Assembly (NCBI GenBank): GCA_022709525.1
Contig: JAKLIQ010000005.1
Location: forward strand, 7,626-71,625
Direction of reading: 5' to 3'
DNA length: 64,000 bases
Origin: Candidatus Omnitrophota bacterium
GTDB lineage: Bacteria > Omnitrophota > Omnitrophia > Omnitrophales > Aquincolibacteriaceae
Position numbers and translations under genes: made by a program. Position 1 is the first letter of the stretch. The number at the start of each line of letters is the position of its first letter. Of the stretch, positions 15,935 to 38,011 are shown piece after piece. Below the pieces are notes generated by a model that saw nothing but the letters and a program-made list of their open reading frames with translations, did no database searches and had not been told where the DNA came from.

Positions 15935-15987
15935 CTCAAAGTATTGGGCCAAAACGGGGTGTTTTGGAATAGGTTCCCACAGGTTTT
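15935..15987 (-). promoter_or_regulatory. Conserved island promoter-like element, copy A (ECF-type GGAAC-N16-CGTT on gene strand)
   Basis: One of three ~53-bp near-identical copies. Lies about 92 bp upstream of the trbG-like ATG. Confidence 0.5.
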
Positions 15988-16008
15988 GAGAAAAAAAGTG
16001 GAAGATTT

Positions 16009-16656
16009 CTAGAGTTTATTGAGGAGAATTTCGCGGTAGTCTTCGACAAGGACGCCCCAGGGGATGTCCTTGCTTCTTGGAACCTTCTTTAAGAGCAGCT
16101 CGGCTTTAAAGAGGCTTGATTCCTTATAATCCCGATCGTTGTAATTGAGGATGGTCCGCACCCCGATCAGCGCGATTTTCACGTATTCCGGGGTATTCCG
16201 GTCGATCGATTCTTCTTTGAACTCGATATGCGTGTAAAGACCGGTATCGTGGAATTTCGCGAAGAACCCGGAGTCCACAAGGTCCCGCTCCGCGATTTTC
16301 TGATACCGAGCCGTCATTCGGTTCCACGCCTCAGCCGTATCGCTTGAAAGCGTGTAGGAATTCAATTCCCTAAAACGTTTCGTGAAAGTTTTCGCGAAAT
16401 CAAAAACCTCGAAATCGGTCGGGGCGTTATTAAGCTCAAGATCATGGATCGCTTCCGCTTTTCCCACCTCATTTACCCGGATCACGACCGGCGGCCGCTT
16501 GGCGAGCATGAACGCGCCAAAGATCGTGAAGAAAAGAAGCGCGAGCAAAAAAAGACTGATGAGTTTCAGGAACTCGACCTGCGCTTCCAGGTCTCCGAAC
16601 ACCTCGTAATACCGGCGTTTCATGTTCTCGAGTTTGATATGAAAACGGGTTTTCAT
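16009..16656 (-). CDS. trbF: T4SS TrbF/VirB8-like protein
   Basis: Short cytoplasmic N-terminus, one TM (LISLFLLALLFFTIFGAFML), then a ~150-aa NTF2-like periplasmic domain. Sits between trbL-like and trbG-like genes. Confidence 0.5.
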   Translation of the reverse strand: MKTRFHIKLENMKRRYYEVFGDLEAQVEFLKLISLFLLALLFFTIFGAFMLAKRPPVVIRVNEVGKAEAIHDLELNNAPTDFEVFDFAKTFTKRFRELNSYTLSSDTAEAWNRMTARYQKIAERDLVDSGFFAKFHDTGLYTHIEFKEESIDRNTPEYVKIALIGVRTILNYNDRDYKESSLFKAELLLKKVPRSKDIPWGVLVEDYREILLNKL

Positions 16657-17513
16657 TTGTAACCGGCTCCTCCTCCGGCTGGAGTTTGGGGTTTTGAAGA
16701 TGAAGGGGTTTTAGGAATAATGTAACGGGTCGCCACAGCTGTAAACGCGCCAAGCGCGATCGAACCAAGACCGCTTAAGTTGCCGCCCGAAACGAACTGG
16801 TTTGAAAGAAGAGGGACAAGCACAAAGAGCACGATAAAAAGGACGTTCGCGGCGAGGATCATCATGAAATTGGTTTCTTCCGTGAGATAAATCGCAGTCA
16901 GGTTCATAACGGAAACGACTTTCATGAGAATCGAAAGAATAATGTTCCACGCCGAAATGGAAACAAGACTCTTGAGCCATGTGTTAAGGCCCTGAGCGGT
17001 CCCTTTATAGATCCCGACTGAGATCACGATCGGACCGATCACGTACAAAAACGACAGAAGCAGGAACCGAAGCATCATGATCGCGCCAAGAAGCGCTCCG
17101 GCGACGGCGTAAGTGACGTAGTTCAAGACCGTGGCCGTGAGTCTCAGATCGAATTTCCAGGCGGTCTTCCAGGAGAGCGGCTGCTTCAGGAACGCTTTTA
17201 TGACTTCCTGGAATTCCTCGTGCGGCATGATGGCGTTTGATACGAGGTCCGCGCCGTAAACGATCCACGTGAAGAACCGCTCGTAGAGAATGAGAAGACC
17301 AACGACGAGGATTACCCTGATGAAAAGACCGGTATAATCGGACTGGTTCTTAAGCGCCTGAAAGTTTTCGTGAAGAATCGCGACAATGAAAAGGATCGAA
17401 AGCAGAATAAACCCGATCCTCGACATCGTCTGATACGGCTGAGCGAAGAGGTCCGGGATCTGAAGAACGTTAGTAAAAAGAAACCCTTCGTTTGCGTTAA
17501 AAAGACCGGCCAT
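16653..17513 (-). CDS. trbL: T4SS TrbL/VirB6-like polytopic membrane protein
   Basis: At least 5 TM helices, C-terminal Gly/Pro-rich tail. Position after the trbJ-like gene. Confidence 0.6.
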   Translation of the reverse strand: MAGLFNANEGFLFTNVLQIPDLFAQPYQTMSRIGFILLSILFIVAILHENFQALKNQSDYTGLFIRVILVVGLLILYERFFTWIVYGADLVSNAIMPHEEFQEVIKAFLKQPLSWKTAWKFDLRLTATVLNYVTYAVAGALLGAIMMLRFLLLSFLYVIGPIVISVGIYKGTAQGLNTWLKSLVSISAWNIILSILMKVVSVMNLTAIYLTEETNFMMILAANVLFIVLFVLVPLLSNQFVSGGNLSGLGSIALGAFTAVATRYIIPKTPSSSKPQTPAGGGAGYK

Positions 17514-17515
17514 AG

Positions 17516-18283
17516 TTACGCTCCTGTAAATGCCCGACTGATGTTCTCCGCGTAATCACCGGCATCCTCCATGAATTTGAGGCGTTCGGTTTCGACGCGT
17601 TTTTCTTCGCGCGAGACCTGCGCGATTTTCGTGGCTTCTAGCTCCAACAGTTTCGCCATCGCTTCCTGGTTCTGCTGATCCAGGACCATGAGCTGGGACA
17701 TCGCCTGCGCCTGAAGACGAACCGCTCCTTTCGGGCTTGCGGTCGCGGCCTGATCCGCGATCTCGGTCGCGGCGGTGCGCGTCGCGCTTCCGGCTTCCCG
17801 GATCTGCCGGGCGAGATCGAAGGCGTCCACCACCTGCATCTCGTCAAAGGCGAGGTAGGGTTTTGCGTCCGTCTCCGGGATTTTTCCGGTAAGATCCTCC
17901 AACGCGGAACGAATGTCTTCCGGGCCGTTTGCCCCTTGAACCATTTGGATCTGCGGGGAAGTGAATCCGATATCCCTGAAAGCGTTTTGTAAGCTTGTGG
18001 TCCCCTGCCCGAGAAGGTTCCGTATGGGATCACCGATGATGGAACGCAGGATCTCATCCAGCCCCGAATGAAACCGGAATAGCTCCACAGTCTGATTCGT
18101 AAGCTGGTTGAGATGCTCGATCGCGAGCGCGATCTGCTGCCCCCATTCCGTCTGAAGGATCGAGTTTTGAAGTTGGTTCACCGCCGTATTGATCGGGTCG
18201 TTTACGATGAGCGCGTACGATCTCGGGATCGCGACGCTGATTAAAAATACCGCTAAGAACAGAATCTTAGATGATTTTTTCAT
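17516..18283 (-). CDS. trbJ: T4SS TrbJ/VirB5-like protein
   Basis: Signal peptide from MKKSSKILFLAVFLISVAIPRSYA. Largely alpha-helical, coiled-coil rich, ~255 aa. ATG at 18281-18283. Confidence 0.55.
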   Translation of the reverse strand: MKKSSKILFLAVFLISVAIPRSYALIVNDPINTAVNQLQNSILQTEWGQQIALAIEHLNQLTNQTVELFRFHSGLDEILRSIIGDPIRNLLGQGTTSLQNAFRDIGFTSPQIQMVQGANGPEDIRSALEDLTGKIPETDAKPYLAFDEMQVVDAFDLARQIREAGSATRTAATEIADQAATASPKGAVRLQAQAMSQLMVLDQQNQEAMAKLLELEATKIAQVSREEKRVETERLKFMEDAGDYAENISRAFTGA

Positions 18284-18406
18284 AAATGCCTCCCGTGAAA
18301 TAAAAGTAAAAACCCGAGTCCGAGAATCAGGGTCCCGATAAGCAACCGGAGAATCTGCCGCCGGCATATCCTTCTTATCCATCTTGTTTTTCGCTCCTCC
18401 GCCGTG

Positions 18407-20920
18407 TCAGACATGGTCCGCCTCGCTCGATTTCTTGACGCCGTTTGGGAACTTCCGGGAAAGAGTCTCGAGAACCTTGATATGAGAATAATCCGGATGT
18501 TCTTTCCGGAGCCGCGTCTCCTCGGCAAGATCCAAAGCGTCCGTCGTCGCCGCCCAGTACTCGAGCGCGCTTGGCTCAAGACGGGCAATAACGCTTTTAT
18601 CGTCGAATTTGATGAACACTTCCGAGTACCGGCCCGGTCTTACCTCAAGTTCTCCGGCCGCTTTGATCTCGTTTTCGTTTAGCCCAAAAAGCGAGAGCTT
18701 CTCGTGGCCTTCTTTAAGACGCAGAATATATTTAACCGGAGAGTTATTGATCATGACGCTCGCGATGGATGCCTCAAGAAAGTCCGTGGGATTTTGAGAA
18801 ATCGAAAGAACTGCAGCGTTCATTTTCCGGGCGGTCCGGTAAAAGGTCTCGACAAGGTCCGTTCCTTGCGTCTCTTTAAGGAGCTGCCAACATTCATCGA
18901 GCACAAGCATCTTCTTTAGATTCAGGTTTTCGAATTTACGGCGGAGCGCGAACGGAATAATGAGAAGCAGGATTTCCTGAAGCTCGGGATACTGCGAGAT
19001 CTTCCGGAGATCAAAGACCGTAAAGCGCGCGTTAAAATCGAACACCCCACGCCGGTTCAGGATCTTCCCGTACTCGCCTTCCGTAAAAAGCGTGAGTTCT
19101 TTCGCGAACTGATAAGCCTTTTTCTGGTCGTCTTCATCCCCCAGCTTGAAATTGCGAAGGTATTTTTCGAGGTCCCCAAGAAGCGGGGCGTCTTGCTCCC
19201 CGAGATTCCGGTAAACCTCCAGAATCACGCGTTCCAGGATCATCTTTTCGCTGGAGGACCACTCCCGTTTCGGGGCGATCATCTGCTGAAGCAGCTCTTT
19301 CAGGAACTGAATGAAAGTCGCGTCCGCTCCTCCCTCCGGGAAAAGAACTGCTTTGGCAGGAAAAGGATTCAGAGCGAATTTTTCGGAACATTCCACTTCG
19401 AGATAAGACCCGCCCAAAACGCCGGCGAGTTTGCGGTAACTGCCGCCAAGATCGATCACGATCACTTCATGGTCCAAAGATTCGATCAAAAAATGAAGAA
19501 GTAAGTGATTCGTGAAAAAACTTTTTCCGCTCCCGGTTGTGCCGAGCATGACGCTATGTTTCGCCTGGAGTTTGGCGTCGAAAAGATCGAGACGTAACGG
19601 TTCACTGTGGTAGGTCTTTAGAAGAAGACCGATCCGCTCCGTCCCTCTCCAACTTGCCTGAAGCGGAAGAAGATGCGTCAGGACTTCGGATCGGACAATA
19701 AAGGCCAGAGGATTCTCATCGCCCTGAAGAGGAAGAAACGAAAGAAACAAACGGTCATGGTTCATGTGATCTTCGATCCCTTGCGCGTCCCCAAGATCCC
19801 GGAACGCGCGGAGCGCCTGCTTCGAAGACCGGACGCTTTCTTCCAAGGTCTCAGCGCGCACCATCACAGAGAACGAAACGTAAAAGAGTTTGTCCGAGCT
19901 TTGAGCGATCTCGGTCAAAAGTTCGTCCGTTTCCCCGGCCTGAGCGAGCGCGTCATGATCTTTCGAACGGGAGTAAAAAGTCTTTGCTCTCGCGAAGTTC
20001 CCGTACCGCCGAATCTCGGATTTTTCCTTGTCCTGGTCCGGGACCTCGAACGTGACCGTAAAAAAATAGTCCTTTCCAAGCGCATGTTCGAAATCTTTCA
20101 TGGATTTTAGGGTCGTGGATTCGGGAAGCCGGAGCAGGTTTAACGTACGGTAAAAATAATGATCGAGATAGAAGTGATCGTATTCAAGGCGCGGCGGATG
20201 AACCGTTAAACGGCTGCGAAGGCTTGACGGATCGGATTCGCTCGCTTCAAGGTTCGATTCCCCAAAAGGAACGAACTCTTCGGAATAAGATGGGTTCAGG
20301 AACTCATATAAATACTGGAGTAGTTCCGAATCGGAAAGCGCGCGAATCTCGAACCCGAGAGCGCGGAAACTTTCCTCGATCTCACTCGAGAGCGCGTGAA
20401 GCGTTTCTCTTGAAGCGCTATATTCAAGTTCGGATAAGCGGTGCGCTTTTTTCCCGAACGCAACGGACAGGTCCGGAAGAAAGGACGAGCGTGGTTTCTT
20501 GCCGTCCGGGTGAATCACCACAAACAAAAAAACTTCCCTTTTAAGAAGCGGGCGTTTCCGGTACGCGTCGAGTTTCGCGTCAAGAAACGTTTTCCCAAGC
20601 GGGATCTCGCTTTGGATCGAGGACGCGTATTCCTTAAGCGAACCCTCATCCCCGCTCTCGGAATGGACCACGAAATGAAGCGTCGCGCCTTCGGGGAGCG
20701 CGTTTAGGAACTTGCGCATCTTTCTCTCGAAATCCTCGATCTCGGCTTCGCTCCCCAGGAGTAGATCTTTCCCTCCGAACCGGAAACCACGGGCCATGGA
20801 TCCGCTCACCCCGAGCAGTATGCCGTCCTCGAGATCATAAAGATCGATCTCCCGTAAAAAGGAAGGGCGGGTTTCTCTTTGGATAAGATCGCGGGTCTTG
20901 AGAAGAAGGTTCGTTTTCAT
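18407..20920 (-). CDS. trbE: T4SS ATPase TrbE/VirB4
   Basis: VirB4-type Walker A (MLGTTGSGKSFF) and Walker B (KKMLVLDECWQLL). ~835 aa. ATG at 20918-20920. Confidence 0.9.
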   Translation of the reverse strand: MKTNLLLKTRDLIQRETRPSFLREIDLYDLEDGILLGVSGSMARGFRFGGKDLLLGSEAEIEDFERKMRKFLNALPEGATLHFVVHSESGDEGSLKEYASSIQSEIPLGKTFLDAKLDAYRKRPLLKREVFLFVVIHPDGKKPRSSFLPDLSVAFGKKAHRLSELEYSASRETLHALSSEIEESFRALGFEIRALSDSELLQYLYEFLNPSYSEEFVPFGESNLEASESDPSSLRSRLTVHPPRLEYDHFYLDHYFYRTLNLLRLPESTTLKSMKDFEHALGKDYFFTVTFEVPDQDKEKSEIRRYGNFARAKTFYSRSKDHDALAQAGETDELLTEIAQSSDKLFYVSFSVMVRAETLEESVRSSKQALRAFRDLGDAQGIEDHMNHDRLFLSFLPLQGDENPLAFIVRSEVLTHLLPLQASWRGTERIGLLLKTYHSEPLRLDLFDAKLQAKHSVMLGTTGSGKSFFTNHLLLHFLIESLDHEVIVIDLGGSYRKLAGVLGGSYLEVECSEKFALNPFPAKAVLFPEGGADATFIQFLKELLQQMIAPKREWSSSEKMILERVILEVYRNLGEQDAPLLGDLEKYLRNFKLGDEDDQKKAYQFAKELTLFTEGEYGKILNRRGVFDFNARFTVFDLRKISQYPELQEILLLIIPFALRRKFENLNLKKMLVLDECWQLLKETQGTDLVETFYRTARKMNAAVLSISQNPTDFLEASIASVMINNSPVKYILRLKEGHEKLSLFGLNENEIKAAGELEVRPGRYSEVFIKFDDKSVIARLEPSALEYWAATTDALDLAEETRLRKEHPDYSHIKVLETLSRKFPNGVKKSSEADHV

Positions 20921-21195
20921 TTGGGAAGCTCCTCTTTTCGTTCCCGTCTCGAGAAATATTTCCGGGGACGGAGTAGGAACCGCATCACCGATCCCGCCCA
21001 ATGCGGAGCCTTCCCCTTTTTATAGAACCGCAACACCAGATACGCGCCGGACACGAGCGCGAGATTAAGGAGCAGGTTCGTGGAAAAGACGAACACCACG
21101 AGATAAATCACGAGCAGGATCAAAAGATCCAGGAACTCGAGCCCGAAAATCTTGTTTTTGCTCTGGATCTTCGTGAAACCTTTCAGTGTTTTCAT
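20917..21195 (-). CDS. trbD: T4SS TrbD/VirB3-like small membrane protein
   Basis: 92 aa with one or two TM helices. Immediately upstream of and overlapping the VirB4 start. Confidence 0.55.
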   Translation of the reverse strand: MKTLKGFTKIQSKNKIFGLEFLDLLILLVIYLVVFVFSTNLLLNLALVSGAYLVLRFYKKGKAPHWAGSVMRFLLRPRKYFSRRERKEELPK

Positions 21196-21206
21196 TTACA
21201 GCCTCC

Positions 21207-21542
21207 TTAAAAATGCGCGATGTGCGTGATGAAATCGAGGATCGCGCGGGAAAGTAAAATGAGCGCTCCGCCGCCTGCGGCAAGCGCGCCGCGCTGCATA
21301 GCCCGCTCATCGCCAAGCGCCATCCCGACCCCAGCCACGCCGACCCCGATCACAAGCACCGCCGGTCCGACCGTCCGGATCAGGAAATCGCCGACACCCT
21401 CGAGAAACGCTCCTAAATCCGATTCCGAGGTCGCTTCGGCGTACGCGACCTGAGCTTGAATCAGCAGGAACAATCCGAACAGGGCCAGCTTTTGAATTTT
21501 TGGACCAATACTTTTTCCATTCACGTTCTTTACCCTCCTCAT
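21207..21542 (-). CDS. trbC: T4SS pilin TrbC/VirB2-like
   Basis: About 110 aa from MRRVKN. Signal/leader, then two hydrophobic helices (GVGVAGVGMALG...AAGGGALILL) typical of VirB2 pilins. Start coordinate approximate, within a few nt. Confidence 0.55.
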   Translation of the reverse strand: MRRVKNVNGKSIGPKIQKLALFGLFLLIQAQVAYAEATSESDLGAFLEGVGDFLIRTVGPAVLVIGVGVAGVGMALGDERAMQRGALAAGGGALILLSRAILDFITHIAHF

Positions 21543-21627
21543 AAAGTGAGGGGAGAGTTGCCTTAAACCCCTGGGGTAGCCGCGAATCGCGACGCTCACA
21601 AATAAATTTGAATGGGTGGCATCTCCC

Positions 21628-21680
21628 CTCAAAGTATTGGGCCAAAACGGCCCTGTCCGGAATAGGTTCCCACAGGTTTT
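21628..21680 (-). promoter_or_regulatory. Conserved island promoter-like element, copy B
   Basis: Same ~53-bp element. About 86 bp upstream of the trbC-like start, immediately downstream of the sigma-region-4 regulator gene. Confidence 0.5.
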
Positions 21681-22182
21681 ATGGATTTTCCCGAGAGAAA
21701 ATTTTTTTTCGGATCCGGTTAAGCATGTCTTCCACGCCCCGGAGAGTCAGTCCCAGCCGGTTCGCGATCTCCGGACAAGAGAGCCGCTCCTCAAACCGAA
21801 GCTGGACCATGAGTCTCTGTTTTTCCGTGAGATCACAGGTATTGAGAAATTGCTTGATCCGATCTCTCTCATAAGCGCGCTTGAAAGCTTTTAAAGCGCT
21901 GGTCCTAAGAGACGAGACGCGGCGAAGCGTAACACCAAGCCGGTCCGCGATCTCAATGTCCGGAAGTTCTTCAACGTACGCGAGATGGAACCAGGCTTTC
22001 TGTTTCTCGGTCAAAGCCTTCTCCACCAGATCCCTTAACGTATTTCGAACTTCCTCGGACCGGTTTTCTTCTTCCTCCTTTCTCGCGAGCTCCTCAAAAG
22101 GACTCGAAACACAGGCGATTTTTTCTCTCACTTTCAATTCAAAGTGCGTGAGCGCTTCTCCATTTGCGTCTTCCACGCGCAT
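21679..22182 (-). CDS. Small transcription regulator with two tandem sigma-70 region-4-like HTH domains
   Basis: Two repeats of the sigma-4/LuxR-like pattern (LTEKQKAWFHLAYVEELPDIEIADRLGVTLRRVSSLRTSALKAFKR and LTEKQRLMVQLRFEERLSCPEIANRLGLTLRGVEDMLNRIRKKI). No sigma region 2 seen. Start uncertain: ATG at 22182 or TTG at 22332. Confidence 0.55.
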   Translation of the reverse strand: MRVEDANGEALTHFELKVREKIACVSSPFEELARKEEEENRSEEVRNTLRDLVEKALTEKQKAWFHLAYVEELPDIEIADRLGVTLRRVSSLRTSALKAFKRAYERDRIKQFLNTCDLTEKQRLMVQLRFEERLSCPEIANRLGLTLRGVEDMLNRIRKKIFSRENP

Positions 22183-22923
22183 GAAATCGATCGCCCTTGT
22201 TCTTGATTTGATTCGTTCATGTTTTTCCTCCTCAGTTTCCTCGACATTGTTTTTGTTTTCATTTTCGTTTTCGTTTGGTATTGACACAGCGGTGTCCTTT
22301 CCGCCGTGCGAGGAACTAGAATGAGGACACAAAAAAAACGGGCAACCCGGTAAGAGGCTGCCCGTTTCAAGAAAAGAGGCCTTAAAAACAAAAAAAGATT
22401 TTTAAGACCGCGAAGTATGCGAAGACACCATGCCCTATGGAAGGAATCCCAGGATAGGGATCACCGATCGAAAAAGAGAGAATGGATCGTGGGAAGAACT
22501 AGGATCCGGAGTCTGACAGAGTCAGCAAAGTGGAGCGGAGCTGGAAATGAGGGGAAAAGGGATTGGAGGCACACTACAACCCGAACGCGAACAACCCTTC
22601 CGCGTTGCCGTGTCTAGACTCACACGGCCGTGAGTTATAGTCTGCATACGTCGAGACGCATTCGCGTCTCGCCTCCAACTATAGGTGGTTCTTTATGTCA
22701 TGCGTGGATGCCTCATATCACCCACCGCAAACGTTCTGAAAAAAGGGACGCTTTTTTCAGAGTGCCCGATTGGGCAAAGGAACTGTACCCGATGAAATTC
22801 TTTTTTGCAAGGGACGGCAGAAATTTTTCCGGAAATGATAAAACATGATCAAAATTGCGCGGAACCCCATAGAAAAGGGTAGAATTATTAGCCGATTTTA
22901 GACAAAAAAAAGAAGGATTTTCG

Positions 22924-22968
22924 GGGAGAGGAGCCAGTCGCTTCAGAAACACTCGCTGCCTCTCCCCG
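22924..22968 (-). terminator. Stem-loop (GGGGAGAGG...CCTCTCCCC) followed by a T-run on the minus strand
   Basis: 9-bp perfect inverted repeat just downstream of the 22977-23360 gene. TTTTTTTT begins about 12 nt after the stem on the minus strand. Confidence 0.3.
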
Positions 22969-22976
22969 ATTCTCCA

Positions 22977-23360
22977 TTACCTTCGGAACCACCGCTCGAT
23001 ATCGTTTTTAATCGAGCGAACCGTGTAATCCCACGATCTCACTTGGGACTGACCGGTTCGGATCTGACTTTGCAAAGTCTCGTTTCTTTCGCGGTAAAGA
23101 GGAACAGTTACTTGCGGATTAGACTCGTAAGCCGTTCCTGCTCCATACTGCGGCGGGATTGAAACGCGGGGTTCGGATGTCTTTTGACTTTCCCGATAAG
23201 TTTTTAAAAGACAGCCGCCTCCCAGCAAATACAAAGTCACGCAAAAGATGAACAAACGAAGAAACATCTGGAATATCCATTGCGCGAGAATCGAAACGAC
23301 CCGTTTATACCAGGCCCAGGCTTTTCCGAGCACGTCAAGAACGTAACCTCTCATTTTCAT
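22977..23360 (-). CDS. Hypothetical membrane protein
   Basis: One strong TM helix (VTLYLLGGGCLLKTY). No domain recognised. Confidence 0.35.
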   Translation of the reverse strand: MKMRGYVLDVLGKAWAWYKRVVSILAQWIFQMFLRLFIFCVTLYLLGGGCLLKTYRESQKTSEPRVSIPPQYGAGTAYESNPQVTVPLYRERNETLQSQIRTGQSQVRSWDYTVRSIKNDIERWFRR

Positions 23361-24387: not shown

Positions 24388-24485
24388 TTTCTTTTTCCTC
24401 CTGAAAAAGAAAAAGCGGAACGCATACTTCTCGTTCCGCTTTTCCAGCGTTTTGAAATATTGAGATGTTTGAAATTACTAACGAT

Positions 24486-26163: not shown

Positions 26164-26183
26164 GGGTTCCTCCTAAACTTGAT

Positions 26184-29071: not shown

Positions 29072-29130
29072 GGACAGTTTTCTCCCTTGGTTTTATGTTT
29101 TTGATTTGAAGTTAAAAGAAGGTGAAAAGG

Positions 29131-30189: not shown

Positions 30190-30211
30190 TGTGATCTCCT
30201 TGGTAGTGAAA

Positions 30212-31315
30212 TTAACGCTCGAAACTGACAACCTCATTGAACGAATAGAATTGTTTCTCCAGAATCTCGGGAGTGCCCCACCCGTAAGGGTAATAACTGA
30301 TCTTGATACCCTCGGGGATAGGCGTAAGGGAGAGAATCCGGATCGTGCGGCCCCGGTATCCGCGGTAAGCGTCCTGATCTTTCGCGTAATATCTCTCAAA
30401 AAAATACCAGGCAAGGCTCGCAATTTTCTCCCGCCCTTCCCACGGCAACGCTCCCGGGATCACATTCCCTTCGATCCTCGCCCTTGAAACAACGGCCCGC
30501 TTAAAAGGACGGGAACGTTTACGGATGAGGAACTTATTCCGACCTACGGGTTTTGTAATCACCCATTTCGTTTTCCGTTTCTCCCCATGCGGCCGGCAGG
30601 CGATCTCTTTTCCACAAAAAGCGAGACGGTTCAGAAATTCTTCAACGCTTCCGAACCTTCCTTGGATTTTTTTGATGCAGCGTTTTTGTGTTTTCTCGTC
30701 CGTCACCATGCAGCGTTCCGCGATCCGCATGCTGTTCATGCGACAGCGCCCAAAGATGCAGCGGGAGCAGTATTTTTTCTTCTTTTTCTCAAGCTGGTTC
30801 CAGAAATCATTGCGGGCGGCAATGGCGCGCTTATTCCGGCTGATCACCTTCGAATCGAGACGGATATATTCCGCGCTCCATGGTTTCTTAAAGGGCGAGT
30901 AATGATTGACCCGGGAGGGTTTTAAGTACCGCCACCCATCCAGGGAAATGTTGAATTTCCCTAGAGCATTCGCCGGACGAAACGAGCAGCCGCCCGGTTT
31001 CACGCCGTAACTGAAACAGTTGCCCGTGATCCCGTGCAGACGATCCTTGCAAAGATCACAGAATTTGACGGTCTTGCGTTCCCCGTTAATCACGAGGAAT
31101 CTTTCGGGTTTTGCGGCATAAAATCCGAAGACCGGATCGGAGTAGCCGGAACTGCGTTTATCCTCTACACACTTTGATTGCAGGCTTTCAAGCGCAGCAA
31201 CATAAACCTGGCGGCCTTTCCTTGCGACAACGCACGAATCAAGTTTCAGGTCCGTGAGGTCACCCGGATCGGTAAGCACATAAATATCTTTGAACTTCGT
31301 ATAAAGTCTTTTCAT
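30212..31315 (-). CDS. Cys-rich hypothetical protein, paralog 1 of tandem pair
   Basis: 367 aa with the same conserved Cys pattern as 29131-30189. Clean ATG. Confidence 0.5.
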   Translation of the reverse strand: MKRLYTKFKDIYVLTDPGDLTDLKLDSCVVARKGRQVYVAALESLQSKCVEDKRSSGYSDPVFGFYAAKPERFLVINGERKTVKFCDLCKDRLHGITGNCFSYGVKPGGCSFRPANALGKFNISLDGWRYLKPSRVNHYSPFKKPWSAEYIRLDSKVISRNKRAIAARNDFWNQLEKKKKKYCSRCIFGRCRMNSMRIAERCMVTDEKTQKRCIKKIQGRFGSVEEFLNRLAFCGKEIACRPHGEKRKTKWVITKPVGRNKFLIRKRSRPFKRAVVSRARIEGNVIPGALPWEGREKIASLAWYFFERYYAKDQDAYRGYRGRTIRILSLTPIPEGIKISYYPYGWGTPEILEKQFYSFNEVVSFER

Positions 31316-31348
31316 GGAAGTGTTCTCCTTTTTGAATAAGTGGTGGAA

Positions 31349-31852
31349 TCATCTTTGTTTCGCGTAGCGAAGTCCCTCGACGAAATACTGATTGAGGCGG
31401 TCCCTCATCTGATAAAAGAGATCCGCCATTTCCTTCTGAAGTTCCGCGCTTGAAGTCCACACAAAATTCCAGGCTTTCGCGTTATATTCAGAGATCACGG
31501 CATTCTGAAATGAGACAACGACATAGGTGACGTCCTCATACGAGGCTTCGATCGCGATGGAGATGGGAGGGTAGCTGATTTTCTTTTTCTCTAAATAATC
31601 CACCTGGACCTTGTCCCGGATCACGCTAAAAATCGCGTAAAACTTCGATTTCACGGCATAGAGAAGTTCCTCCCCGATAAATTCATCGGGGACACAGCCT
31701 TCCTGGGGATCAAGGTAAAGTTTCTGAATAAGAAGGTCCCCCTCATCTTCGTTTTTCTTGATTTCAAAAAGACCTGAGTGATATTCGAGAAGTGTCTTTT
31801 TCAGATCCTGATAAAGCTCCATCTGAAGCGTTTCGCGTTTCGGGTATTCCAT
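31349..31852 (-). CDS. Hypothetical protein
   Basis: 167-aa ORF with clean ATG. No domain recognised. Confidence 0.4.
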   Translation of the reverse strand: MEYPKRETLQMELYQDLKKTLLEYHSGLFEIKKNEDEGDLLIQKLYLDPQEGCVPDEFIGEELLYAVKSKFYAIFSVIRDKVQVDYLEKKKISYPPISIAIEASYEDVTYVVVSFQNAVISEYNAKAWNFVWTSSAELQKEMADLFYQMRDRLNQYFVEGLRYAKQR

Positions 31853-31924
31853 AACTCCCCCTCCTTAAAATGAAATGGGCAGGGACGCTCTCACGGCCCT
31901 GCCCTGGTGAATTCGTTAAACAAG

Positions 31925-32281
31925 CTACTTGCGAACGTCGGTTAGTCCTTTGATGGCTCGCTTCAGATTCCTCTTTTCTTTCTCGAGATCGCCCGCTTCC
32001 GGATCGGTGTCGTAAACGCTAACCGCTGCTTTGGGGATGTTTGCATAAACACCCTGAACGATTCCTTCCTCGATATGGATCACGAGCTTCAAGGTTTCTC
32101 TCTTGAAGCGGTTAAATCTTTCAACAAGCGTACTGCAATTCAAGCGCTCGCAGAGATCATCGATCTGTTTTGATGCAAGCGGACGGACATTTTTGAAATG
32201 CTCCATGCCGACAGCCGGCCGTTCTTGAAATGTCCGAAGCGCGGCAAGCACGGTGGCGAGTTCTTTTTTTGTCAGGTTCAT
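31925..32281 (-). CDS. Hypothetical protein
   Basis: 118 aa from MNLTKKELATV. ATG at 32279-32281. Confidence 0.3.
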   Translation of the reverse strand: MNLTKKELATVLAALRTFQERPAVGMEHFKNVRPLASKQIDDLCERLNCSTLVERFNRFKRETLKLVIHIEEGIVQGVYANIPKAAVSVYDTDPEAGDLEKEKRNLKRAIKGLTDVRK

Positions 32282-32328
32282 AATTATTCCTTTTGTTGGA
32301 TTGGATTTTTTGAGTTTCAAGAGAATAA

Positions 32329-32583
32329 CTATGGGCGAGATTTCCTGCTGTAACCGTAGATAACGGCGTCGCAAATACAGCCCGGTAAATCGCAATGCGC
32401 GGTTTCCGCTTTGTATTTTTTACCCGTCCGGGCATCCGTCACGATGAACCGGACAAGCTTCCCTCTCGGCGTCCAGGCTTCCTTGATCCATAGCTTGATT
32501 CGTCTTCCGGTTTCGTGGCACAGCGGTGTAAAAATATACGCAGTTGAACCTTCAACCTTTTTCGTGAGTCGTTTGATTCGCAT
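32329..32583 (-). CDS. Hypothetical small protein
   Basis: 84-aa ORF with ATG. Partial overlap with the neighbouring ORF. Weak. Confidence 0.25.
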   Translation of the reverse strand: MRIKRLTKKVEGSTAYIFTPLCHETGRRIKLWIKEAWTPRGKLVRFIVTDARTGKKYKAETAHCDLPGCICDAVIYGYSRKSRP

Positions 32584-32623
32584 AAAGCGCTCCTTTCCTC
32601 AGTTGATTTGTTTTCTCATGGCC

Positions 32624-33109
32624 TTAGCCGAGACCGCTTTGGCAGGGCGACACGAGGTCACAATTTCCCGTTTTCCACGATTCTTTTTTCCTAGAGCGAA
32701 TGCGCTTATACCCGCATATTGGGGATGGCTTGCAATTTCGCGTAAGTCTTCCGAGATAATTGATACAGCGGGTGCAGCGAGCCTCGGCTTGAGCCATCCG
32801 CTCCACGGCTTTCTCCTTCTCCCGACGTTTGTGGTGATCCAAGAGTTCGAATTCGCTGAATACGTCCTGCTGGTTTTTGCAGGCCGTGACATCCAAAAAC
32901 ATGGTATACCCGCCGTTGAAATTGATGCGGCCGACATTCCGTCCCTGGCAGAAATGCAGCTTGAGTTCCTGGCGGTCGGGATTGTCTCTGCTGATGTAAC
33001 CTCCGATAAACCATTGGTCCCTGTAACCGGAGATATACCCGACCTGACGGCCGGCGTTCCGGCTGTTTAATTCGTTTACCGTTTCGAGTAATTCTTCGCG
33101 TGTAAGCAT
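32624..33109 (-). CDS. Hypothetical protein
   Basis: 161-aa ORF with ATG. No domain recognised. Confidence 0.35.
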   Translation of the reverse strand: MLTREELLETVNELNSRNAGRQVGYISGYRDQWFIGGYISRDNPDRQELKLHFCQGRNVGRINFNGGYTMFLDVTACKNQQDVFSEFELLDHHKRREKEKAVERMAQAEARCTRCINYLGRLTRNCKPSPICGYKRIRSRKKESWKTGNCDLVSPCQSGLG

Positions 33110-33127
33110 TTTGGAAGACTCTCCGTG

Positions 33128-33790
33128 TCAAAGTTGGTTGTGTTCTGAAAAACTAAAGTACTGGTTCTCGCCGATGATGATGTGATCGAGGATACGAATC
33201 GAAACCGTCTGACAGGCGGCTTTTATCTTCTGCGTGATCTCGAAATCCTCGCGGCTCGGTTCAGTCTTTCCGGAAGGATGGTTATGGACGAGCACGAGGT
33301 TCGATGCGTTCTGCAGCAGAGATTCCCGAACAATCTCTCGGGGATGAACCGCCGCTTCATCCACGGTCCCGAAGAAAAGATCCTTATCGCCGAGAATCTT
33401 TAAGGCCTTATCGAGAAACAAAACCTTAAAAACCTCCCGTTTGAGGTCCCGAAGACTCACCGTAAGGTAGTCGGTGACTGCTTGGGGACTTCTAACGAAA
33501 TTCTGCCCGATCATCCCCTGCTTTAAGACGCGTTTTCCTATTTCCCGGACTGCCAAAAGCTGAAACCTCTCGGTTTCGTTTAGATCCTCCAGATCAAAAA
33601 TCTTGCGAAGACCTCCTGCTTTTTTCAAAAGTTCCAAAGCAACATCAACTTCCGTTCGCTCATAAGTAGATTTTTTTAGAATCAGGGATAAAAGTTCAGC
33701 ATCCGACAAAGCTTCGATCCCTTTTTCACGTACCCGAACCACAGGTTGTTCACTTTCAGGCCAGTCTTTTACTGATAATTTTCTTCCCAT
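33128..33790 (-). CDS. radC: RadC-family JAB/MPN domain protein
   Basis: N-terminal HhH (LSDAELLSLILK) and C-terminal JAMM motif (VLVHNHPSGKTEPSREDFEITQKI). Start at MGRKLSVKDWPE. Confidence 0.8.
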   Translation of the reverse strand: MGRKLSVKDWPESEQPVVRVREKGIEALSDAELLSLILKKSTYERTEVDVALELLKKAGGLRKIFDLEDLNETERFQLLAVREIGKRVLKQGMIGQNFVRSPQAVTDYLTVSLRDLKREVFKVLFLDKALKILGDKDLFFGTVDEAAVHPREIVRESLLQNASNLVLVHNHPSGKTEPSREDFEITQKIKAACQTVSIRILDHIIIGENQYFSFSEHNQL

Positions 33791-34037
33791 GATCTCAGTC
33801 TCCTTAGACACAAGATAGGCGGGAAGAGAACTTCTCCTTCCCGCCTATCTTTCGATGTTCATTTCACGATCACTTCCCAGCCAAACCGTTTGAAACGCTC
33901 GATCAGGCGGGCGTGTTTCGATTCGTCTTGTTTTCGAATGATGAGCCGCACAAAAATCACCTCCTCCTTTAAAAAGAAAAAGGGAGAAGCGGCTTTTTAA
34001 ACCACCTCTCCCCTTAAACTTTCCTTCGAAACGCGCG

Positions 34038-34553
34038 TTAAGCGGTTGCTTGCGCCACCGCTTTCGCGGGCTCTGCTTCAGGGCTCCGGAGAGCTTCCGC
34101 CACGGCTTCCACCGAAGACTCCAAAATGGACAATGCTTTCTTGCCATTCGGGATGAAGGTTCCCTCGTCCCCTTTGAAGGCATAGCAGACCCGAACGAAG
34201 CTGTTCTTCGGACCGCGAACCTTCGAAACCTGGTACTGCTCGGTTTCGGAAATGGAAACGGCGCTCACGAGAACCGTTTCGCAGTTCTTCCCTTCAGCGG
34301 GCAGGGAAAGTTCCGGCGCTTTCTTCGCCGCGAGAATGGCCTCGGCGAGTTCCTTGCGGAATTCCGCGCGGACGTTCATACCTTCCTTGGTCTTCTTGAA
34401 CTGCCCGTCCTTCTTGTAATACACGTGAAGATCGAGGAAGGACGCTCCGTCTTTACCGGTCCATGAACTGACACGGTAAATGTCGTTTTCAAAACGGGTC
34501 ACGTCCTTGATGATCTTGTCCTGGTTTTTGTTACTTTCTTTTTTCGTATTCAT
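34038..34553 (-). CDS. PC4/YdbC-like ssDNA-binding protein (possibly two tandem PC4-like halves)
   Basis: Two blocks resembling PC4/YdbC (IYRVSSWTGKDGASFLDLHVYYKKDGQFKKTKEGMNV and SKVRGPKNSFVRVCYAFKGDEGTFIPNGKKALSI). Resemblance only. Confidence 0.4.
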   Translation of the reverse strand: MNTKKESNKNQDKIIKDVTRFENDIYRVSSWTGKDGASFLDLHVYYKKDGQFKKTKEGMNVRAEFRKELAEAILAAKKAPELSLPAEGKNCETVLVSAVSISETEQYQVSKVRGPKNSFVRVCYAFKGDEGTFIPNGKKALSILESSVEAVAEALRSPEAEPAKAVAQATA

Positions 34554-34748
34554 TGTGTTTCTCCTTTTTGGTTTTTATTTTTTGAATAGGTTGAACAACA
34601 CTGCTCATCTGTTTTTTCTCTGGCAGTCACCTCCTTTTCGAAGCTTTTGAAAATTAAAAAGGGGAAAGCGCCGCGGACCGAGGCCCGGGAACTTTCCCCT
34701 TACGAGTTTGTTAAATGGTAATTTTTATGAAGCTTTAGAACGTTGCGG

Positions 34749-36560
34749 TTATTTTTCTTCTTCCAGTTTCTTAATGATCTCAAGCGGGTTATCGATCTCA
34801 TCAAGAGCTGTGTCTTTTTCTTCCGGAGCGCTTCTCTTCGTTTTTACGGGTTTTTTCACGCTCGTTTTCGGATCGAATTCGTCGGGATAACTCGAATACC
34901 CGAAGAAATCGAGTTTGATGTGATCGGTAAGAAGCGACGGGTTTTTCCAGATCAAAGCGGCTTCCCCGCGTTTAAGACCCCGGATCAGGTCCGGCTCGAT
35001 GCGGAAGGTCTGGCCTTCGCGGACGGAACCCGCGCCCGTCAGACCTTTCCCAAGGATCTGTTCCTGGGTTTGGTAAGTGGAGATCATCGTGCGGCGCGTC
35101 CCGGCGATTTTCACGAATTTCTCCACGGAAAAAGGATCATCCTGGCGAAGAATCACCTTGATGTTGGTGTTCTCCACAACCTGCTGCTGGAAATTGGACA
35201 TACCCCGGTAAACAAGGTCCCCCAGGGATTGATGAAGAATAGTGACGGCATACCCGCTTGCCCTGCATTTATTCAGAAAATCGATGAAGTTAAGCTCCAA
35301 AAAACTTGAAGCGTCATCGATAAACACCGGAAAGAAATGACGGTTATAAGGCGTGATGTGGGACACGATATGGCTTGAAACGGCGCGGATATCCTGAATG
35401 ATCATCCGGCCGAGACGCCGCGAAGTGTCCGCGTACTTCTGAAGATCGAGCGCGAAATAACAGATCTGGTTATTTTCATAGACCGAAAGCAGATCGATCT
35501 CGGGATCATTCGTATCGAGACGGTCCGAGAATTCGCTCCTTGAGGTGAGAAAAAGATCGGACATTAATCCGGCGAGGAACTTTTGGTTGTCCCTGAAACC
35601 CGCTACCATCTTCCCGATGTCTTCTTTCAGGACCGGATTGGTCATTTCATCCGAGAGTTTTTGGAGAGCGTTTAAGTCCGTCAAATATCCGTGAAGTTCC
35701 CGGAACCGGGCAGTTCTCCCCACCGAGGCGATGGCGTTAAGGAGCGTGAGCGCGGCCTGCTCCGCCATACGCCGGTAAAACTCCTCGCTCCATGCCATGC
35801 TGTTAACGAGCTTGTCTTTCAGTTCGGTCGGGTTCCCCCGAAAAAGCGGGTTATAGGTGTTCGAGTCCTTGGGATGGCTTAATGAGAAGAAGTAGAAATC
35901 GTCCTTGCGTTTTTGTTTATGGACGATGTAGCGGATCTTGTTCCGGAGTTCCAGATCCCCTTTCCCGTCGATAATGATCGCGCCTTTTCCGTGCGCGATA
36001 TCATGAGCGAGCATCGGAAGAAGGACGGATTCCGTTTTTCCGGTGCCGGTGCTTCCGACAACCTCGCAGTGCATCAGGCGCTGGTCATTGGTGAGATAAA
36101 GAGGTTTCTTCTGGTTTAGGCCGTATCCCAAATAAACCCTGTGGTAATCGGATTTCAGGCGAAAAGCGCGCATCCGTTCAGGGGAAGGATCCGGTTTAAC
36201 GCCATCCGGCTTAAAATATCTGGCTTCCTGGTTGAGATAAGCAAAACACAGGAAAACGGGCAGCGTAATGACGAGATAAAGCAGGAAAAAGAACCCGAAC
36301 TTTACGCCCGGGGCCCAGTTGGGATTCACCAGTTTGCTTTGAAAAACGAGATCGAGAAGATCGAAAAGAGCGCCGAGTCTTAAAACGCAGAACAGGGAAA
36401 ATAAACCCAAGACTGCCGGAATCGATTTCCGAAGCCAGGGGTTTTCGAGTTTTGTCAAAACACTCAGAAGACCTTTCGAGATCCCGAAAGGAATCCCCAC
36501 AAAAATCCCGCCGATCACTCGGACGAGAATCGGTTCTCTTTTGATCGGAGGTTTCTGCAT
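34749..36560 (-). CDS. Type IV coupling protein (VirD4/TraD/TraG family)
   Basis: N-terminal TM helices. Walker A (VVGSTGTGKTESV), Walker B region, and the TraD/TrwB-like C-terminal domain. Confidence 0.85.
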   Translation of the reverse strand: MQKPPIKREPILVRVIGGIFVGIPFGISKGLLSVLTKLENPWLRKSIPAVLGLFSLFCVLRLGALFDLLDLVFQSKLVNPNWAPGVKFGFFFLLYLVITLPVFLCFAYLNQEARYFKPDGVKPDPSPERMRAFRLKSDYHRVYLGYGLNQKKPLYLTNDQRLMHCEVVGSTGTGKTESVLLPMLAHDIAHGKGAIIIDGKGDLELRNKIRYIVHKQKRKDDFYFFSLSHPKDSNTYNPLFRGNPTELKDKLVNSMAWSEEFYRRMAEQAALTLLNAIASVGRTARFRELHGYLTDLNALQKLSDEMTNPVLKEDIGKMVAGFRDNQKFLAGLMSDLFLTSRSEFSDRLDTNDPEIDLLSVYENNQICYFALDLQKYADTSRRLGRMIIQDIRAVSSHIVSHITPYNRHFFPVFIDDASSFLELNFIDFLNKCRASGYAVTILHQSLGDLVYRGMSNFQQQVVENTNIKVILRQDDPFSVEKFVKIAGTRRTMISTYQTQEQILGKGLTGAGSVREGQTFRIEPDLIRGLKRGEAALIWKNPSLLTDHIKLDFFGYSSYPDEFDPKTSVKKPVKTKRSAPEEKDTALDEIDNPLEIIKKLEEEK

Positions 36561-36571
36561 CGCTCACCTCC

Positions 36572-37336
36572 TCAGAAAAGACGGCTCAGTTTGAAACTGG
36601 CCCGTTTATTTTCAAAGAGCGTTTCCCCTTGTTCGCTCATCAGCTCGCGATACGTGGTAATCCAGATCTTCTGGGCGTTATAACGCATCCCGTGAACGAG
36701 CCAATCCTTGGTGTCCCCATCAATGATCATGAGAAGCAGGAGATAAAGTTTGTGATCGCTGTAATAATCAAAGACCTCCTGATAACGTTTCATGCTTTTT
36801 GTCAGATGATTCTCGAACTCGATCGCGATCCGTTTCCCGCGAAGGGTCAAAATACCGTCCGGAACGCGGAACAAATGATCGCGTTCCCGAAGCACCCTTT
36901 CGGGGATCCAGCCGTCCAACCCGAACTGACGGAAGAAAATCCTCACGCTTGCGACTTTTAAATCATGGTCGATGGAACGATCGAAATACGGGGTGGGCTC
37001 ATAAAGTCGGATGCCGGAATCGAGGTTCCGGTTTTTCAGAATCCCTAACGATTTCTCGGTTACGAAATAGATGTTCAGGTTCTTTCGGCCGGAATATCCT
37101 TTCGAAAGGAAGCCCGAGTTAATGAGCCGCTCGATCCGCCGGTAACAGGCCTTAGCCGGCTCCGAACGCTCCTTCCAGAACGCTTCTCGGATCTGGCCGT
37201 AAGCCAAATACCGGTGTTCATGGATTAACCTAAAAACTGCGATGTCTCGATCCGTCAACTCAATCGGTTGAATGACCTGCATCAATTCGTCGGAATCATC
37301 ACTTGCGGATTCATTATCGAGCGGTTGATCTATCAT
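36572..37336 (-). CDS. Replication-relaxation family protein
   Basis: Winged-helix N-terminus (FRLIHEHRYLAYGQIREAFW) and overall replic_relax-like pattern. Directly upstream of the T4CP gene. Confidence 0.5.
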   Translation of the reverse strand: MIDQPLDNESASDDSDELMQVIQPIELTDRDIAVFRLIHEHRYLAYGQIREAFWKERSEPAKACYRRIERLINSGFLSKGYSGRKNLNIYFVTEKSLGILKNRNLDSGIRLYEPTPYFDRSIDHDLKVASVRIFFRQFGLDGWIPERVLRERDHLFRVPDGILTLRGKRIAIEFENHLTKSMKRYQEVFDYYSDHKLYLLLLMIIDGDTKDWLVHGMRYNAQKIWITTYRELMSEQGETLFENKRASFKLSRLF

Positions 37337-37442
37337 TAAAGGCTCCTCCTTAAAAGCGCTGACGGGCCTTGCCGGGAGAAGCGTTTATCAACCGCGAAGG
37401 GGGAAGATTTTCAGGTCTTCCCCCTTTTCACCCTTTAACGGA

Positions 37443-37871
37443 TTACCGCGTAAAACTGCGGGCCGTAGAAATCGTCTGGTTTAAACGGCTCCAAAGATCG
37501 CTTAGGAGGAGTCTCCGTTCCTGAGCGATCCGGTAATCCTCCGCGGGTCTCGAAACCGCAGCCACAAACGATGGCTGCCGAATCGTTACCTTCGGATAAA
37601 AGGGCTGGGCTTTCCGGGTGCTCGGCAGCACGGGAATCGTGATCTCCCGGGACTGCTTCGGCGTCTCGTCCTTCCACATCTCCTGCCAGGAAGCCCATGC
37701 AAAATTGGAACCCCGGTTCATCAAAGCGGCAGAGGTCATGGCCACAAAAAGCACAAAACCCAAGCTGACGCCCGCACCGAACAATCTTCCCAATCTTGCC
37801 AAAAAACTTCCGTTTCGTCTCACGTTCACAGAAATTTCACGTACTTGTCTCTTGTCCAGTTCTCGTTTCAT
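37443..37871 (-). CDS. Hypothetical small membrane protein (first gene after promoter-like element copy C)
   Basis: 142 aa from MKRELDKRQV. Single TM (GAGVSLGFVLFVAMTSAALM). Confidence 0.4.
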   Translation of the reverse strand: MKRELDKRQVREISVNVRRNGSFLARLGRLFGAGVSLGFVLFVAMTSAALMNRGSNFAWASWQEMWKDETPKQSREITIPVLPSTRKAQPFYPKVTIRQPSFVAAVSRPAEDYRIAQERRLLLSDLWSRLNQTISTARSFTR

Positions 37872-37958
37872 GGTCGTTCTCCTTGTCGTTGTCGAAGGCT
37901 TTAAGGCCCTAATAAGTAGCACCAGGTTTAGGACTGGTCGTTTTGATTTATATGTTCT

Positions 37959-38011
37959 CTCAAAGTATTGGGCCAAAACGGGGTGTTTCGGAATAGGTTC
38001 CCACAGGTTTT
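37959..38011 (-). promoter_or_regulatory. Conserved island promoter-like element, copy C
   Basis: Nearly identical to copy A. About 88 bp upstream of the ATG at 37871. Confidence 0.5.

Follow-up and report, generated by a model that had tools for sequence, protein, structure and literature searches.

The AcaCD-dependent promoters have no -35 box, and the activator site takes the -35 position in a class II arrangement (PMC5058578). Salmonella genomic island 1 (SGI1) as well as the mobilizable genomic islands (MGIs) carry the AcaCD or SetCD boxes of a helper without possessing a conjugation apparatus (PMC4605294, PMC5058578). The conjugative elements of uncultivated phyla are known almost only as gene lists. 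Here we describe a 53-bp repeat, and a regulator gene next to it, in a conjugative element of a Candidatus Omnitrophota bacterium, based on a stretch of 64,000 nucleotides (assembly GCA_022709525.1, contig JAKLIQ010000005.1, positions 7,626 to 71,625) that is called the window below. The window has the layout of a master regulon, namely an element-encoded regulator and the same box before three operons, and this layout is kept in four of the related loci (L001, L002, L004 and L156; L numbers denote fetched loci). With a probability of roughly 0.55, we take the repeat to be one regulated two-part promoter, used three times under the element's own regulator, which would act as an activator.

A repeat before three transfer operons

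The repeat is numbered 1-53 along the minus strand, which is its functional strand, and its consensus is AAAACCTGTGGGAACCTATTCCGAAACACCCCGTTTTGGCCCAATACTTTGAG. Copy A (15935-15987, minus strand) lies 91 nt 5' of the ATG of a cagX-like gene (15843), copy B (21628-21680, minus strand) 97 nt 5' of the GTG of trbC (21530), and copy C (37959-38011, minus strand) 87 nt 5' of the ATG (37871) of a gene for a 142-aa membrane protein. A previous interpretation of this DNA made from the letters alone (the sequence-only reading) had located three copies, and they are present exactly where it put them, co-oriented on the minus strand; the distance of 86-92 bp from the operons that it gave agrees roughly with the values measured here. 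The operon behind copy A (10587-15843, minus strand) comprises cagX/virB9-like and trbI/virB10-like genes, an 82-aa gene, an OEP (TolC-like) gene and a glycosyltransferase gene. That behind copy B (16009-21530, minus strand) consists of the trbC pilin gene, a 92-aa gene, a virB4/traC-like gene (864-aa open reading frame, ORF), a 288-aa gene, a trbL-like gene and a 215-aa gene, and that behind copy C (34749-37871, minus strand) of the 142-aa membrane protein gene, a Replic_Relax/MobC-like relaxase gene and the gene for the type IV coupling protein (T4CP). The identities proposed earlier for these operons (trb genes, relaxase and T4CP) are supported by Pfam matches to TrbC, VirB4/TraC-like, TrbL-like, CagX, TrbI, Replic_Relax and T4CP, and the order of genes in the operons of copies A and B is conserved in the related elements.

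The window has exactly three matches to each of the two invariant blocks of the repeat (22 and 23 nt), also when three mismatches are allowed, compared with an expectation of zero from 100 shuffles, and a repeat finder assigned the three copies to a single family of 66 nt. As had been claimed, substitutions are limited to the spacer: all differences between copies fall at positions 23-30, with one between A and C and six between B and C. The 20 nt 5' of the repeat are 72% A+T compared with 51% for the window, and apart from this A+T richness the upstream flanks of the copies have nothing in common. Copies A and B lie directly behind co-oriented genes, the first two bases of copy B being the last two bases of the TAA stop codon of the regulator gene; copy C has no co-oriented gene nearby. 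A simple promoter scan found no sigma-70 consensus promoter at the copies.

Species-representative genomes and Joint Genome Institute (JGI) metagenomes were scanned with a degenerate pattern of 20.5 specified bases, which gave 5 + 21 further stretches; this pattern replaced an earlier 14-base core pattern, for which chance matches were among those listed on viral contigs. The 46 occurrences (three in the window and 43 at fetched loci) are all intergenic and include 31 unique sequences, counting the window's three. In every case with comparable downstream DNA (a few contigs were too short or truncated for this), trbC, cagX, the membrane-gene/relaxase pair or a relaxase gene follows in the same orientation at about 78-110 nt, or in one case at 161 nt. 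Orthologues of copy A precede cagX in L001, L002, L131, L138, L142, L152 and L156, and those of copy B stand directly behind the regulator gene in L001, L002, L004, L133, L134, L149 and L153-L159. Copy C has orthologues in L130, L004 (3551-3603), L128, L141, L150, L151 and L132; it is the first feature at one end of the element, and in L004 it adjoins host cob and lacI-type genes. No relatives of the element were found in plasmid and viral collections. Among the related loci, the labels of metagenome-assembled genomes include one Candidatus Omnitrophica and one Harrisonbacteria, such bin labels being uncertain. The repeat is thus conserved in related conjugative elements, and its occurrences 5' of, and co-oriented with, the same operon types bear out a promoter-type control element of a type IV secretion system (T4SS)/relaxase regulon.

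By its conservation the repeat falls into two parts, with a spacer between them. The core (positions 34-53; TTTTGGCCCAATACTTTGAG, general form TTTkGCCCAATACTnTGAG) is identical to that of the window at 17-20 of 20 positions across the 31 unique occurrences, and is retained where the regulator is only about 45% identical. Its copies lie on the minus strand at 15935-15954 (A), 21628-21647 (B) and 37959-37978 (C), with the -10-like TACTTT at 15938-15943, 21631-21636 and 37962-37967, respectively. The sequence TTGGCCCAATACTTTGAG, regarded earlier as merely a downstream block, is in fact the most conserved part of the repeat. The address (positions 2-22; AAACCTGTGGGAACCTATTCC), on the minus strand at 15966-15986 (A), 21659-21679 (B) and 37990-38010 (C), is identical in the three window copies, and has 8-18 of its 21 bases in common with those of other lineages (8-13 in the distant ones). 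In the window it contains a direct repeat, ACCTGT and ACCTAT, with one unit in each half, exactly 10 bp apart. The spacer (positions 23-33) is free to vary. Because the search pattern forced part of the core to match, the five loci found via the protein alone matter most. Their sequences, TTTTTGCCCAATACTATGAG (L004, with a regulator about 45% identical), TTTTGCCTCTTACTCTGAG (L156), TTTTGCCCAAGACTATGAG (L157), AATTGCCCAATACTATGAG (L158) and TTTACCGCCAATAGATGAG (L159), leave TTTkGCC and ACTnTGAG as the robust invariants.

The motif GGAAC-N16-CGTT, on which the sequence-only reading had built a promoter of the extracytoplasmic function (ECF) type, is present on the minus strand in each window copy, its GGAAC lying within the address. 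The window contains seven matches to this motif against 0.6 expected; the four outside the repeat are all within ORFs. Among 30 unique 53-mers, GGAAC is found in the window's three copies only, the common form elsewhere being GAAGAC, and other lineages having GAAAAC, GAATGC, GCAGCC, CCTTCC or TTTTCC. Across the orthologues, positions 13-15 read GAC, AAC, TAC, TGC, AGC or TTC, and the CGTT site (positions about 32-36) has the variants TGTT, CGGT, CGAT, CCTT, TGAT and CCAT, to which L156-L159 add CGCT, TTGT and GAAT. The AAC motif is the hallmark of the -35 elements of group IV sigma factors (PMC1540707), and since it is absent from most relatives, the ECF interpretation fails the comparative test.

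Addresses differ between lineages (window CTGTGGGAACCTATTCC; L154 CTGTGAATGCGTGACCC; L004 CGAGGGGCAGCCTAAGAC; L156 GTCCACCTTCCTAGAAC), but within an element they are uniform across unlinked copies, with GGGAA in copies A, B and C of the window, CTACG in A, B and C of L001, and a form of its own in B and C of L004. The spacer, in contrast, keeps copy-specific forms that are common to the orthologous copies of different elements, G-rich in B-type and C-rich in A- and C-type copies. Conversion of the whole repeat would have homogenised the spacer too, and simple gene conversion is thus disfavoured; an address uniform within an element beside a copy-specific spacer points to a trans-acting factor, encoded by the element, that would read the address.

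The tandem sigma-4 protein

The regulator gene (21679-22287, minus strand) has a GTG start and a TAA stop and encodes 202 amino acids. Pfam confirmed the proposal that a protein with two sigma-70 region-4 domains is encoded next to copy B: two Sigma70_r4/r4_2 stretches were recognised at residues 106-149 and 168-211 of the 217-aa ORF, with nothing else above threshold, and in the 202-aa numbering the two domains lie at residues about 94-150 and 155-196. In the NCBIfam sigma models only the C-terminal third was aligned (profile positions 96-163 of 165 in TIGR02937), and the top PDB sequence matches are to region 4 of FliA. The AlphaFold model (mean predicted local distance difference test score, pLDDT, 75) has a disordered N-terminus, which is also acidic, a short strand-and-helix segment, a long helix and two four-helix sigma-4 units; a Foldseek search with it returned matches to isolated sigma-4 domains only, at a root mean square deviation of about 1 Å. 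Sigma region 2 was detected by none of these methods (Pfam, NCBIfam, AlphaFold/Foldseek and PDB sequence matches), and Pfam found no region-2 partner among the other ORFs of the element. Without region 2 the protein cannot read or melt a -10 element in the manner of a sigma factor, and cannot serve as one by itself. Two candidate roles were rejected, that of an ECF or complete sigma factor, because region 2 is absent, and that of one half of a two-subunit sigma factor, because Pfam recognised no partner ORF.

Conservation within the family is highest in an N-terminal motif, RTRx[IV]DFMRVE...PFEL[KE]VK, rather than in the helix-turn-helix (HTH) domains; in the regulator itself we read it as RTRxIDFMRVED..THFELKVxEKIA. 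The family comprises 10 clusters by word-indexed search, and about 60 full-length clusters at 50% identity by a profile search of 1.84 billion representatives. It matches no curated family at full length, and no relatives were found in the plasmid and viral collections searched. Weak profile matches link it with NF005385 ('positive control sigma-like factor') as well as with transcription regulators of PHROG, and domain 1 shows a faint similarity to KorA (PF16509, 18.2 bits against a cutoff of 26.7; Foldseek hit 5clv). In lineages down to about 35-45% identity the regulator gene is always immediately 5' of copy B, and the order around the homologues is a conserved non-coding stretch, the regulator, the repeat, and then trbC-virB4...cagX-trbI-OEP.

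The recognition helices of the regulators vary together with the addresses. At the start of the second helix, [LFI]RAV goes with CTGT[GA] in the distal half of the address, PDAV with CTGGG, VWAV with CTACG and EKTV (L004) with CGAGG. Groups with a like second HTH have the distal half CTGTG in common, and their proximal halves differ (ACCTATTCC versus GCATGACCC) where the first HTH is VTxRRV or LG[VI]RNVAK. Of the first helices, VTxRRV is found with ACCTAT[TA]CC, LG[VI]RNVAK with [TC]GC[AG]TGACCC or CCCATGACCC, VSASRV (L004) with GCCTAAGAC, and LSEVRI (L156) with ACCTTCCTAG. This suggestive pairing fits a protein in which domain 2 would read positions about 6-12 and domain 1 positions about 13-22.

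Some 500 nt of non-coding DNA (22335-22830, minus strand) precede the regulator gene and show strong nucleotide conservation across elements, with counterparts at about 9330-10000 in L001 and about 9300-10000 in both L002 and L004. This stretch opens with a sigma-70-like TTGCAA-N17-TACAGT and contains conserved hairpins (GGCCGTGTG..CACGGC and AACGCGGAAGGGTTGTTCGCGTT); its end, 48 nt from the start codon, is formed by two terminator-like hairpins (22409-22378 and 22368-22335). The whole window gave no Rfam match at gathering thresholds. The stretch could be a structured leader, an attenuator or a non-coding RNA, and a leader with terminators suits a tightly held, normally-off master switch. At its predicted 5' end lies TTTGCCCAATcgggcACTCTGA (22766-22790, minus strand), which looks like the core interrupted by a 5-nt insertion; L001 has this sequence, and L002 and L004 have altered forms. 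It was rejected as a fourth copy of the repeat, not being conserved as such in the latter two loci, and is probably a local GCCC/GGGC hairpin.

Transcription start, leaders and rival explanations

According to the explanation that we favour, the repeat would switch on three operons of an integrative conjugative element together, two for the T4SS and one for the relaxase and coupling protein. The address would be read by the 202-aa regulator, the two region-4 HTH domains contacting adjacent major grooves at roughly positions 3-12 and 13-22, and the core would be read by something common to all lineages, most likely the host RNA polymerase holoenzyme. With TACTnT (positions 45-50) as the -10 hexamer, the address would lie at about -55 to -35, and the regulator, rather than being a sigma factor, would replace -35 recognition as a class-II-like activator near -35. 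The repeat itself, where its copies lie, how it is conserved and which domains the protein has are established by the sequences; binding of the address, activation rather than repression, and the -10 and start positions are what we infer. A46 and T50, which would be at -11 and -7, are invariant in five of the six lineages found independently of the DNA pattern (kept in the window, L004, L156, L157 and L158). N49, the only freely variable base of the core, corresponds to hexamer position 5, which is tolerant of variation. TACTnT thus appears to be the best -10 candidate, and transcription would start at about position 56-58, at the beginning of the copy-specific leaders. The sequences at positions 21-27, CCGAAAC, ACAAGAC or GCAGGAC, make a poor -35, and the address ends at 22, close to -35 if the start is at 57. 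The absence of a -35 hexamer, together with an address at about -55 to -35, suggests an activator. Measurements on AcaCD-dependent promoters show the same geometry, in which an activator takes over -35 recognition (PMC5058578).

Other promoter types were also considered for the core and rejected. AATACT (43-48) does not serve as a -10, because L156 has CTTACT there. The resemblance of TGGCCC-N5-TnTGA to sigma-54 promoters fails, since the -12 position does not carry GC and the TTTTTGCCC variants have no GG. GCCCAATA resembles the sigma-28 sequence GCCGATAA, but lacks the CGA core and the TAAA at N15. The Bacteroidetes-type TAnnTTTG gave partial matches only, and a promoter for a T7-like single-subunit polymerase (AATAC...GGGAGA) was dismissed because no such polymerase gene is present in the element.

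The leaders that follow the repeat have conserved structures of their own. The trbC leader (21531-21627, minus strand) has a closing stem, UGAGGGGAG/CUCCCCUCA, that starts from position 50 of the repeat (T50), and the Shine-Dalgarno region UGAGGAGGG is an alternative pairing partner for the 3' arm of this stem. L004, L156, L157, L158 and L159 share this arrangement, L157 with a compensatory change. The cagX leader (15844-15934, minus strand) opens with the same GAGGGGAGA as the trbC leader and has CAUCCCCUC downstream. The relaxase-operon leader (37872-37958, minus strand) has a different conserved sequence, GAGAGAACATATAAA, with the hairpins CCAG..CUGG and GGC..GCC. Both T4SS-operon leaders open with UGAGGGGAGA, a mimic of the Shine-Dalgarno region UGAGGAGGG, and the CUCCCCUCA segment about 10 nt 5' of the ribosome-binding site is complementary to both, the two pairings being mutually exclusive; such exclusive pairings suggest a translational switch in these leaders.

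Several of these observations tell against a start at 56-58, or against activation. The closing stem of B-type leaders begins inside the core at T50 in all lineages. In C-type leaders a CAnAG some 20 nt ahead of the ribosome-binding site is a possible pairing partner of CUnUG (47-51), and N49 co-varies with the base opposite it (CUCUG/CAGAG, CUAUG/CAUAG and CUUUG/CAACG): four sequences have C-G (three close relatives and, by our reading, L132), L130 clearly has A-U, and the window has U-A, two or three events in all. Should these pairings exist in the RNA, the start would have to be at position 47 or earlier, and TACTnT could not be the -10; such a start would fit the one at 43-46 placed by the sequence-only reading. 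The 3' arm CCCCUCA of the B-type stem can also pair with the Shine-Dalgarno region UGAGGAGG, and its conservation is thus no proof that T50-G53 is transcribed. Furthermore, L159 has a 1-nt deletion within TACTnT, and neither a standard sigma-70 promoter nor the ECF model explains why TTTkGCC, at a presumed -22 to -16, does not vary. Activation as such is argued only from the missing -35 and from the control of the regulator gene, and the faint similarity of domain 1 to KorA is with a repressor of IncP. Lastly, the match between regulators and addresses is suggestive only, because independent events are few, the regulator gene is physically linked to copy B, and descent is common.

The next most probable explanation is that of a repressor operator, which we regard as unlikely. 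The core would then be a constitutive host promoter, and the tandem sigma-4 protein on the address would shut the three operons in the manner of KorA, KorB and TrbA. It has the same regulon layout in its favour, as well as the KorA matches of domain 1, and a site overlapping the -35 region could block RNA polymerase; yet there is no recognisable -35 hexamer or consensus promoter to repress, and the address is asymmetric, without the conserved dyad symmetry of a palindromic operator. A long leader with two terminators would be odd for a constantly needed repressor and suits a switch that is kept off, which is why the activator is favoured, and a repressor site would be of no use to islands that have the promoter and no regulator, except in the presence of a helper element. 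More doubtful still is the original ECF model, with a -35 at positions 10-15, a -10 at about 32-36, a start at about A43-A46, and either the tandem sigma-4 protein or a host ECF sigma factor as the specificity subunit. In addition to the exact fit of the window copies to GGAAC-N16-CGTT, this start would put AAUACUnUGAG at the 5' end of all transcripts, thereby explaining the stems from C47 and T50 and the co-variation of N49, and the proposed -35 lies inside the address that tracks the regulator. However, AAC gives way to GAC, TGC, AGC or TTC in most relatives, CGT is lost in L004 (CCTT), class 3 (TGAT), L158 (GAAT) and L156B (CGCT), the regulator has no region 2 and the element no recognised partner supplying one, and a host ECF sigma factor would need a -35 and a -10 conserved across elements, which is not seen.

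That the repeat acts mainly as RNA, in the form of a common 5' leader module that serves the processing, stability or translational control of transcripts from promoters further upstream, is improbable. Copies A and B, being behind co-oriented genes, would be in read-through transcripts, and the 3' end of the core participates in the leader stems; but copy C, which has no co-oriented gene nearby and is at the element edge in L004, cannot rely on read-through transcription, and the upstream sequences share A+T richness only. Nor does the hairpin CCAAAAC/GTTTTGG that had been proposed in the spacer favour it: the sequence is present as described, but in 32 related elements pairing equals that of the shuffled controls (82.6% versus 82.6%), and co-variation within the repeat is not above them. 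The lack of an Rfam match also speaks against an RNA module, and an address that varies between lineages and is uniform within an element behaves as a protein-binding site. Least probable by far is a mobile or recombinational repeat without a role in transcription, such as a miniature inverted-repeat transposable element (MITE) or an att or oriT-type site. The repeat is indeed short and dispersed within a mobile element, but terminal inverted repeats and target duplications are missing, no copy turned up in the plasmid and viral collections, and the repeat keeps a fixed orientation and position relative to the start codon wherever this can be read, with no copy inside a gene or in a 3' region. 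Such constancy before the same operon types excludes a MITE-like repeat.

A bolder form of the activator explanation can be put forward, which taken as a whole is doubtful. The tandem sigma-4 proteins would be an undescribed class of transcription factor standing in for sigma region 4, with their N-terminal motif docked on RNA polymerase or on the TTTkGCC...ACTnTGAG core and their sigma-4 domains reading the address in place of a -35. Each lineage would then have a private promoter code over a common core, and small mobilizable islands would eavesdrop on several helper lineages through stacked promoters with different addresses.

Neighbouring genes, islands and known systems

Several other features of the window were recorded. 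On the 3' side of the coupling-protein gene are a PC4-like gene (34038-34553, minus strand; a weak match below the Pfam cutoff) and a RadC-like gene (33128-33811, minus strand), both conserved in L002 and L004. Nested inverted repeats (38073-38210; outer arms of 17 nt and inner arms of 21 nt) lie just 5' of copy C and the relaxase operon, and the same architecture is found at 3349-3485 of L004, where the sequence changes preserve the complementarity of the arms; they are a candidate origin of transfer (oriT) or element-end structure. Just past copy C is a restriction-modification/repair cargo (38939-43460, minus strand) consisting of genes for a Vsr-like mismatch endonuclease, a Z1-domain protein, an NgoFVII-family restriction enzyme and a C-5 cytosine methyltransferase. 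One ORF (48274-63939, minus strand) spans 5221 aa and contains internal repeats of about 1.1 kb (families D1-D4), in line with published accounts of very long Omnitrophota proteins.

Tandem arrays of two to four copies of the repeat, 80-180 nt apart, precede a Replic_Relax gene in L137, L139, L140, L143, L146 and L147 (on the minus strand at 1000-1450 in L143, 8990-9260 in L146 and 1880-2150 in L147). In L143, L146 and L147, whose fetched DNA extends far enough, the Replic_Relax gene is followed by genes for a small Xis-like HTH protein and a serine or tyrosine recombinase. The fetched island DNA contains neither T4SS genes nor a tandem sigma-4 gene. The addresses differ within one array: one is that of the P0007/P0008-type regulators (L153 and L154), one is of the window type, one resembles the L156/L131 type, and one matches no regulator in this set. 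This mixture suggests that the islands may respond to several helper lineages.

The window provides a testable circuit, composed of a candidate regulator, a probable binding site, three target promoters and a natural set of specificity variants. If the regulator does replace sigma region 4, this would be a new way to redirect RNA polymerase, and the promoter arrays of the islands would be a new example of parasitic elements reading the signals of their helpers; if it is an ordinary activator or repressor, the system would be a new member of the circuits that consist of a master regulator plus a repeated box.

Among known systems, those of AcaCD (IncC) and SetCD (SXT/R391 integrative and conjugative elements) are similar in having an element-encoded regulator and a conserved box before several transfer operons, and islands without a conjugation apparatus carry the boxes in both cases (here L143, L146 and L147). 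The present system differs in that the regulator is a single polypeptide with two sigma region-4 domains instead of an FlhDC-type heteromer (no FlhC or FlhD domain was found in any ORF of the element), in the invariant core of 19-20 bp, in the island arrays with different addresses, and in its uncultivated hosts. The ECF (group IV) promoters, GGAAC-N16/17-CGT, are matched literally by the window copies, and sigma-4-type domains take part in recognition; in contrast, AAC and CGT are not conserved in the orthologues, the regulator lacks region 2, and no anti-sigma gene was recognised near it. MarA, SoxS and Rob are monomeric AraC-type activators with two HTH motifs, which bind an asymmetric site of about 20 bp abutting or overlapping the -35. 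One polypeptide with two HTH units would likewise read an asymmetric site of about 20 bp near -35 here, but its fold is of the sigma-4 rather than the AraC type, it has an extra N-terminal motif, and there is no sequence relationship. The 'positive control sigma-like factor' Xpf and the late activators of the RinA/ArpU type are also small mobile-element regulators that switch late or transfer genes by means of a sigma-4-like HTH, and Orf7 of Tn916 is a sigma-like transposon regulator of the same sort. These have one sigma-4-like domain, or region 2 plus region 4, whereas the regulator described here has a tandem duplication and its own N-terminal motif. As with KorA, KorB and TrbA of IncP, few proteins control many transfer or maintenance promoters via repeated operators; the operators of IncP, however, are palindromic and lie on strong promoters, and the KorA profile match in our regulator is below threshold. 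The type of circuit is well known, and it appears here in new variants, namely the family of the regulator, the invariant core and the arrays with several addresses.

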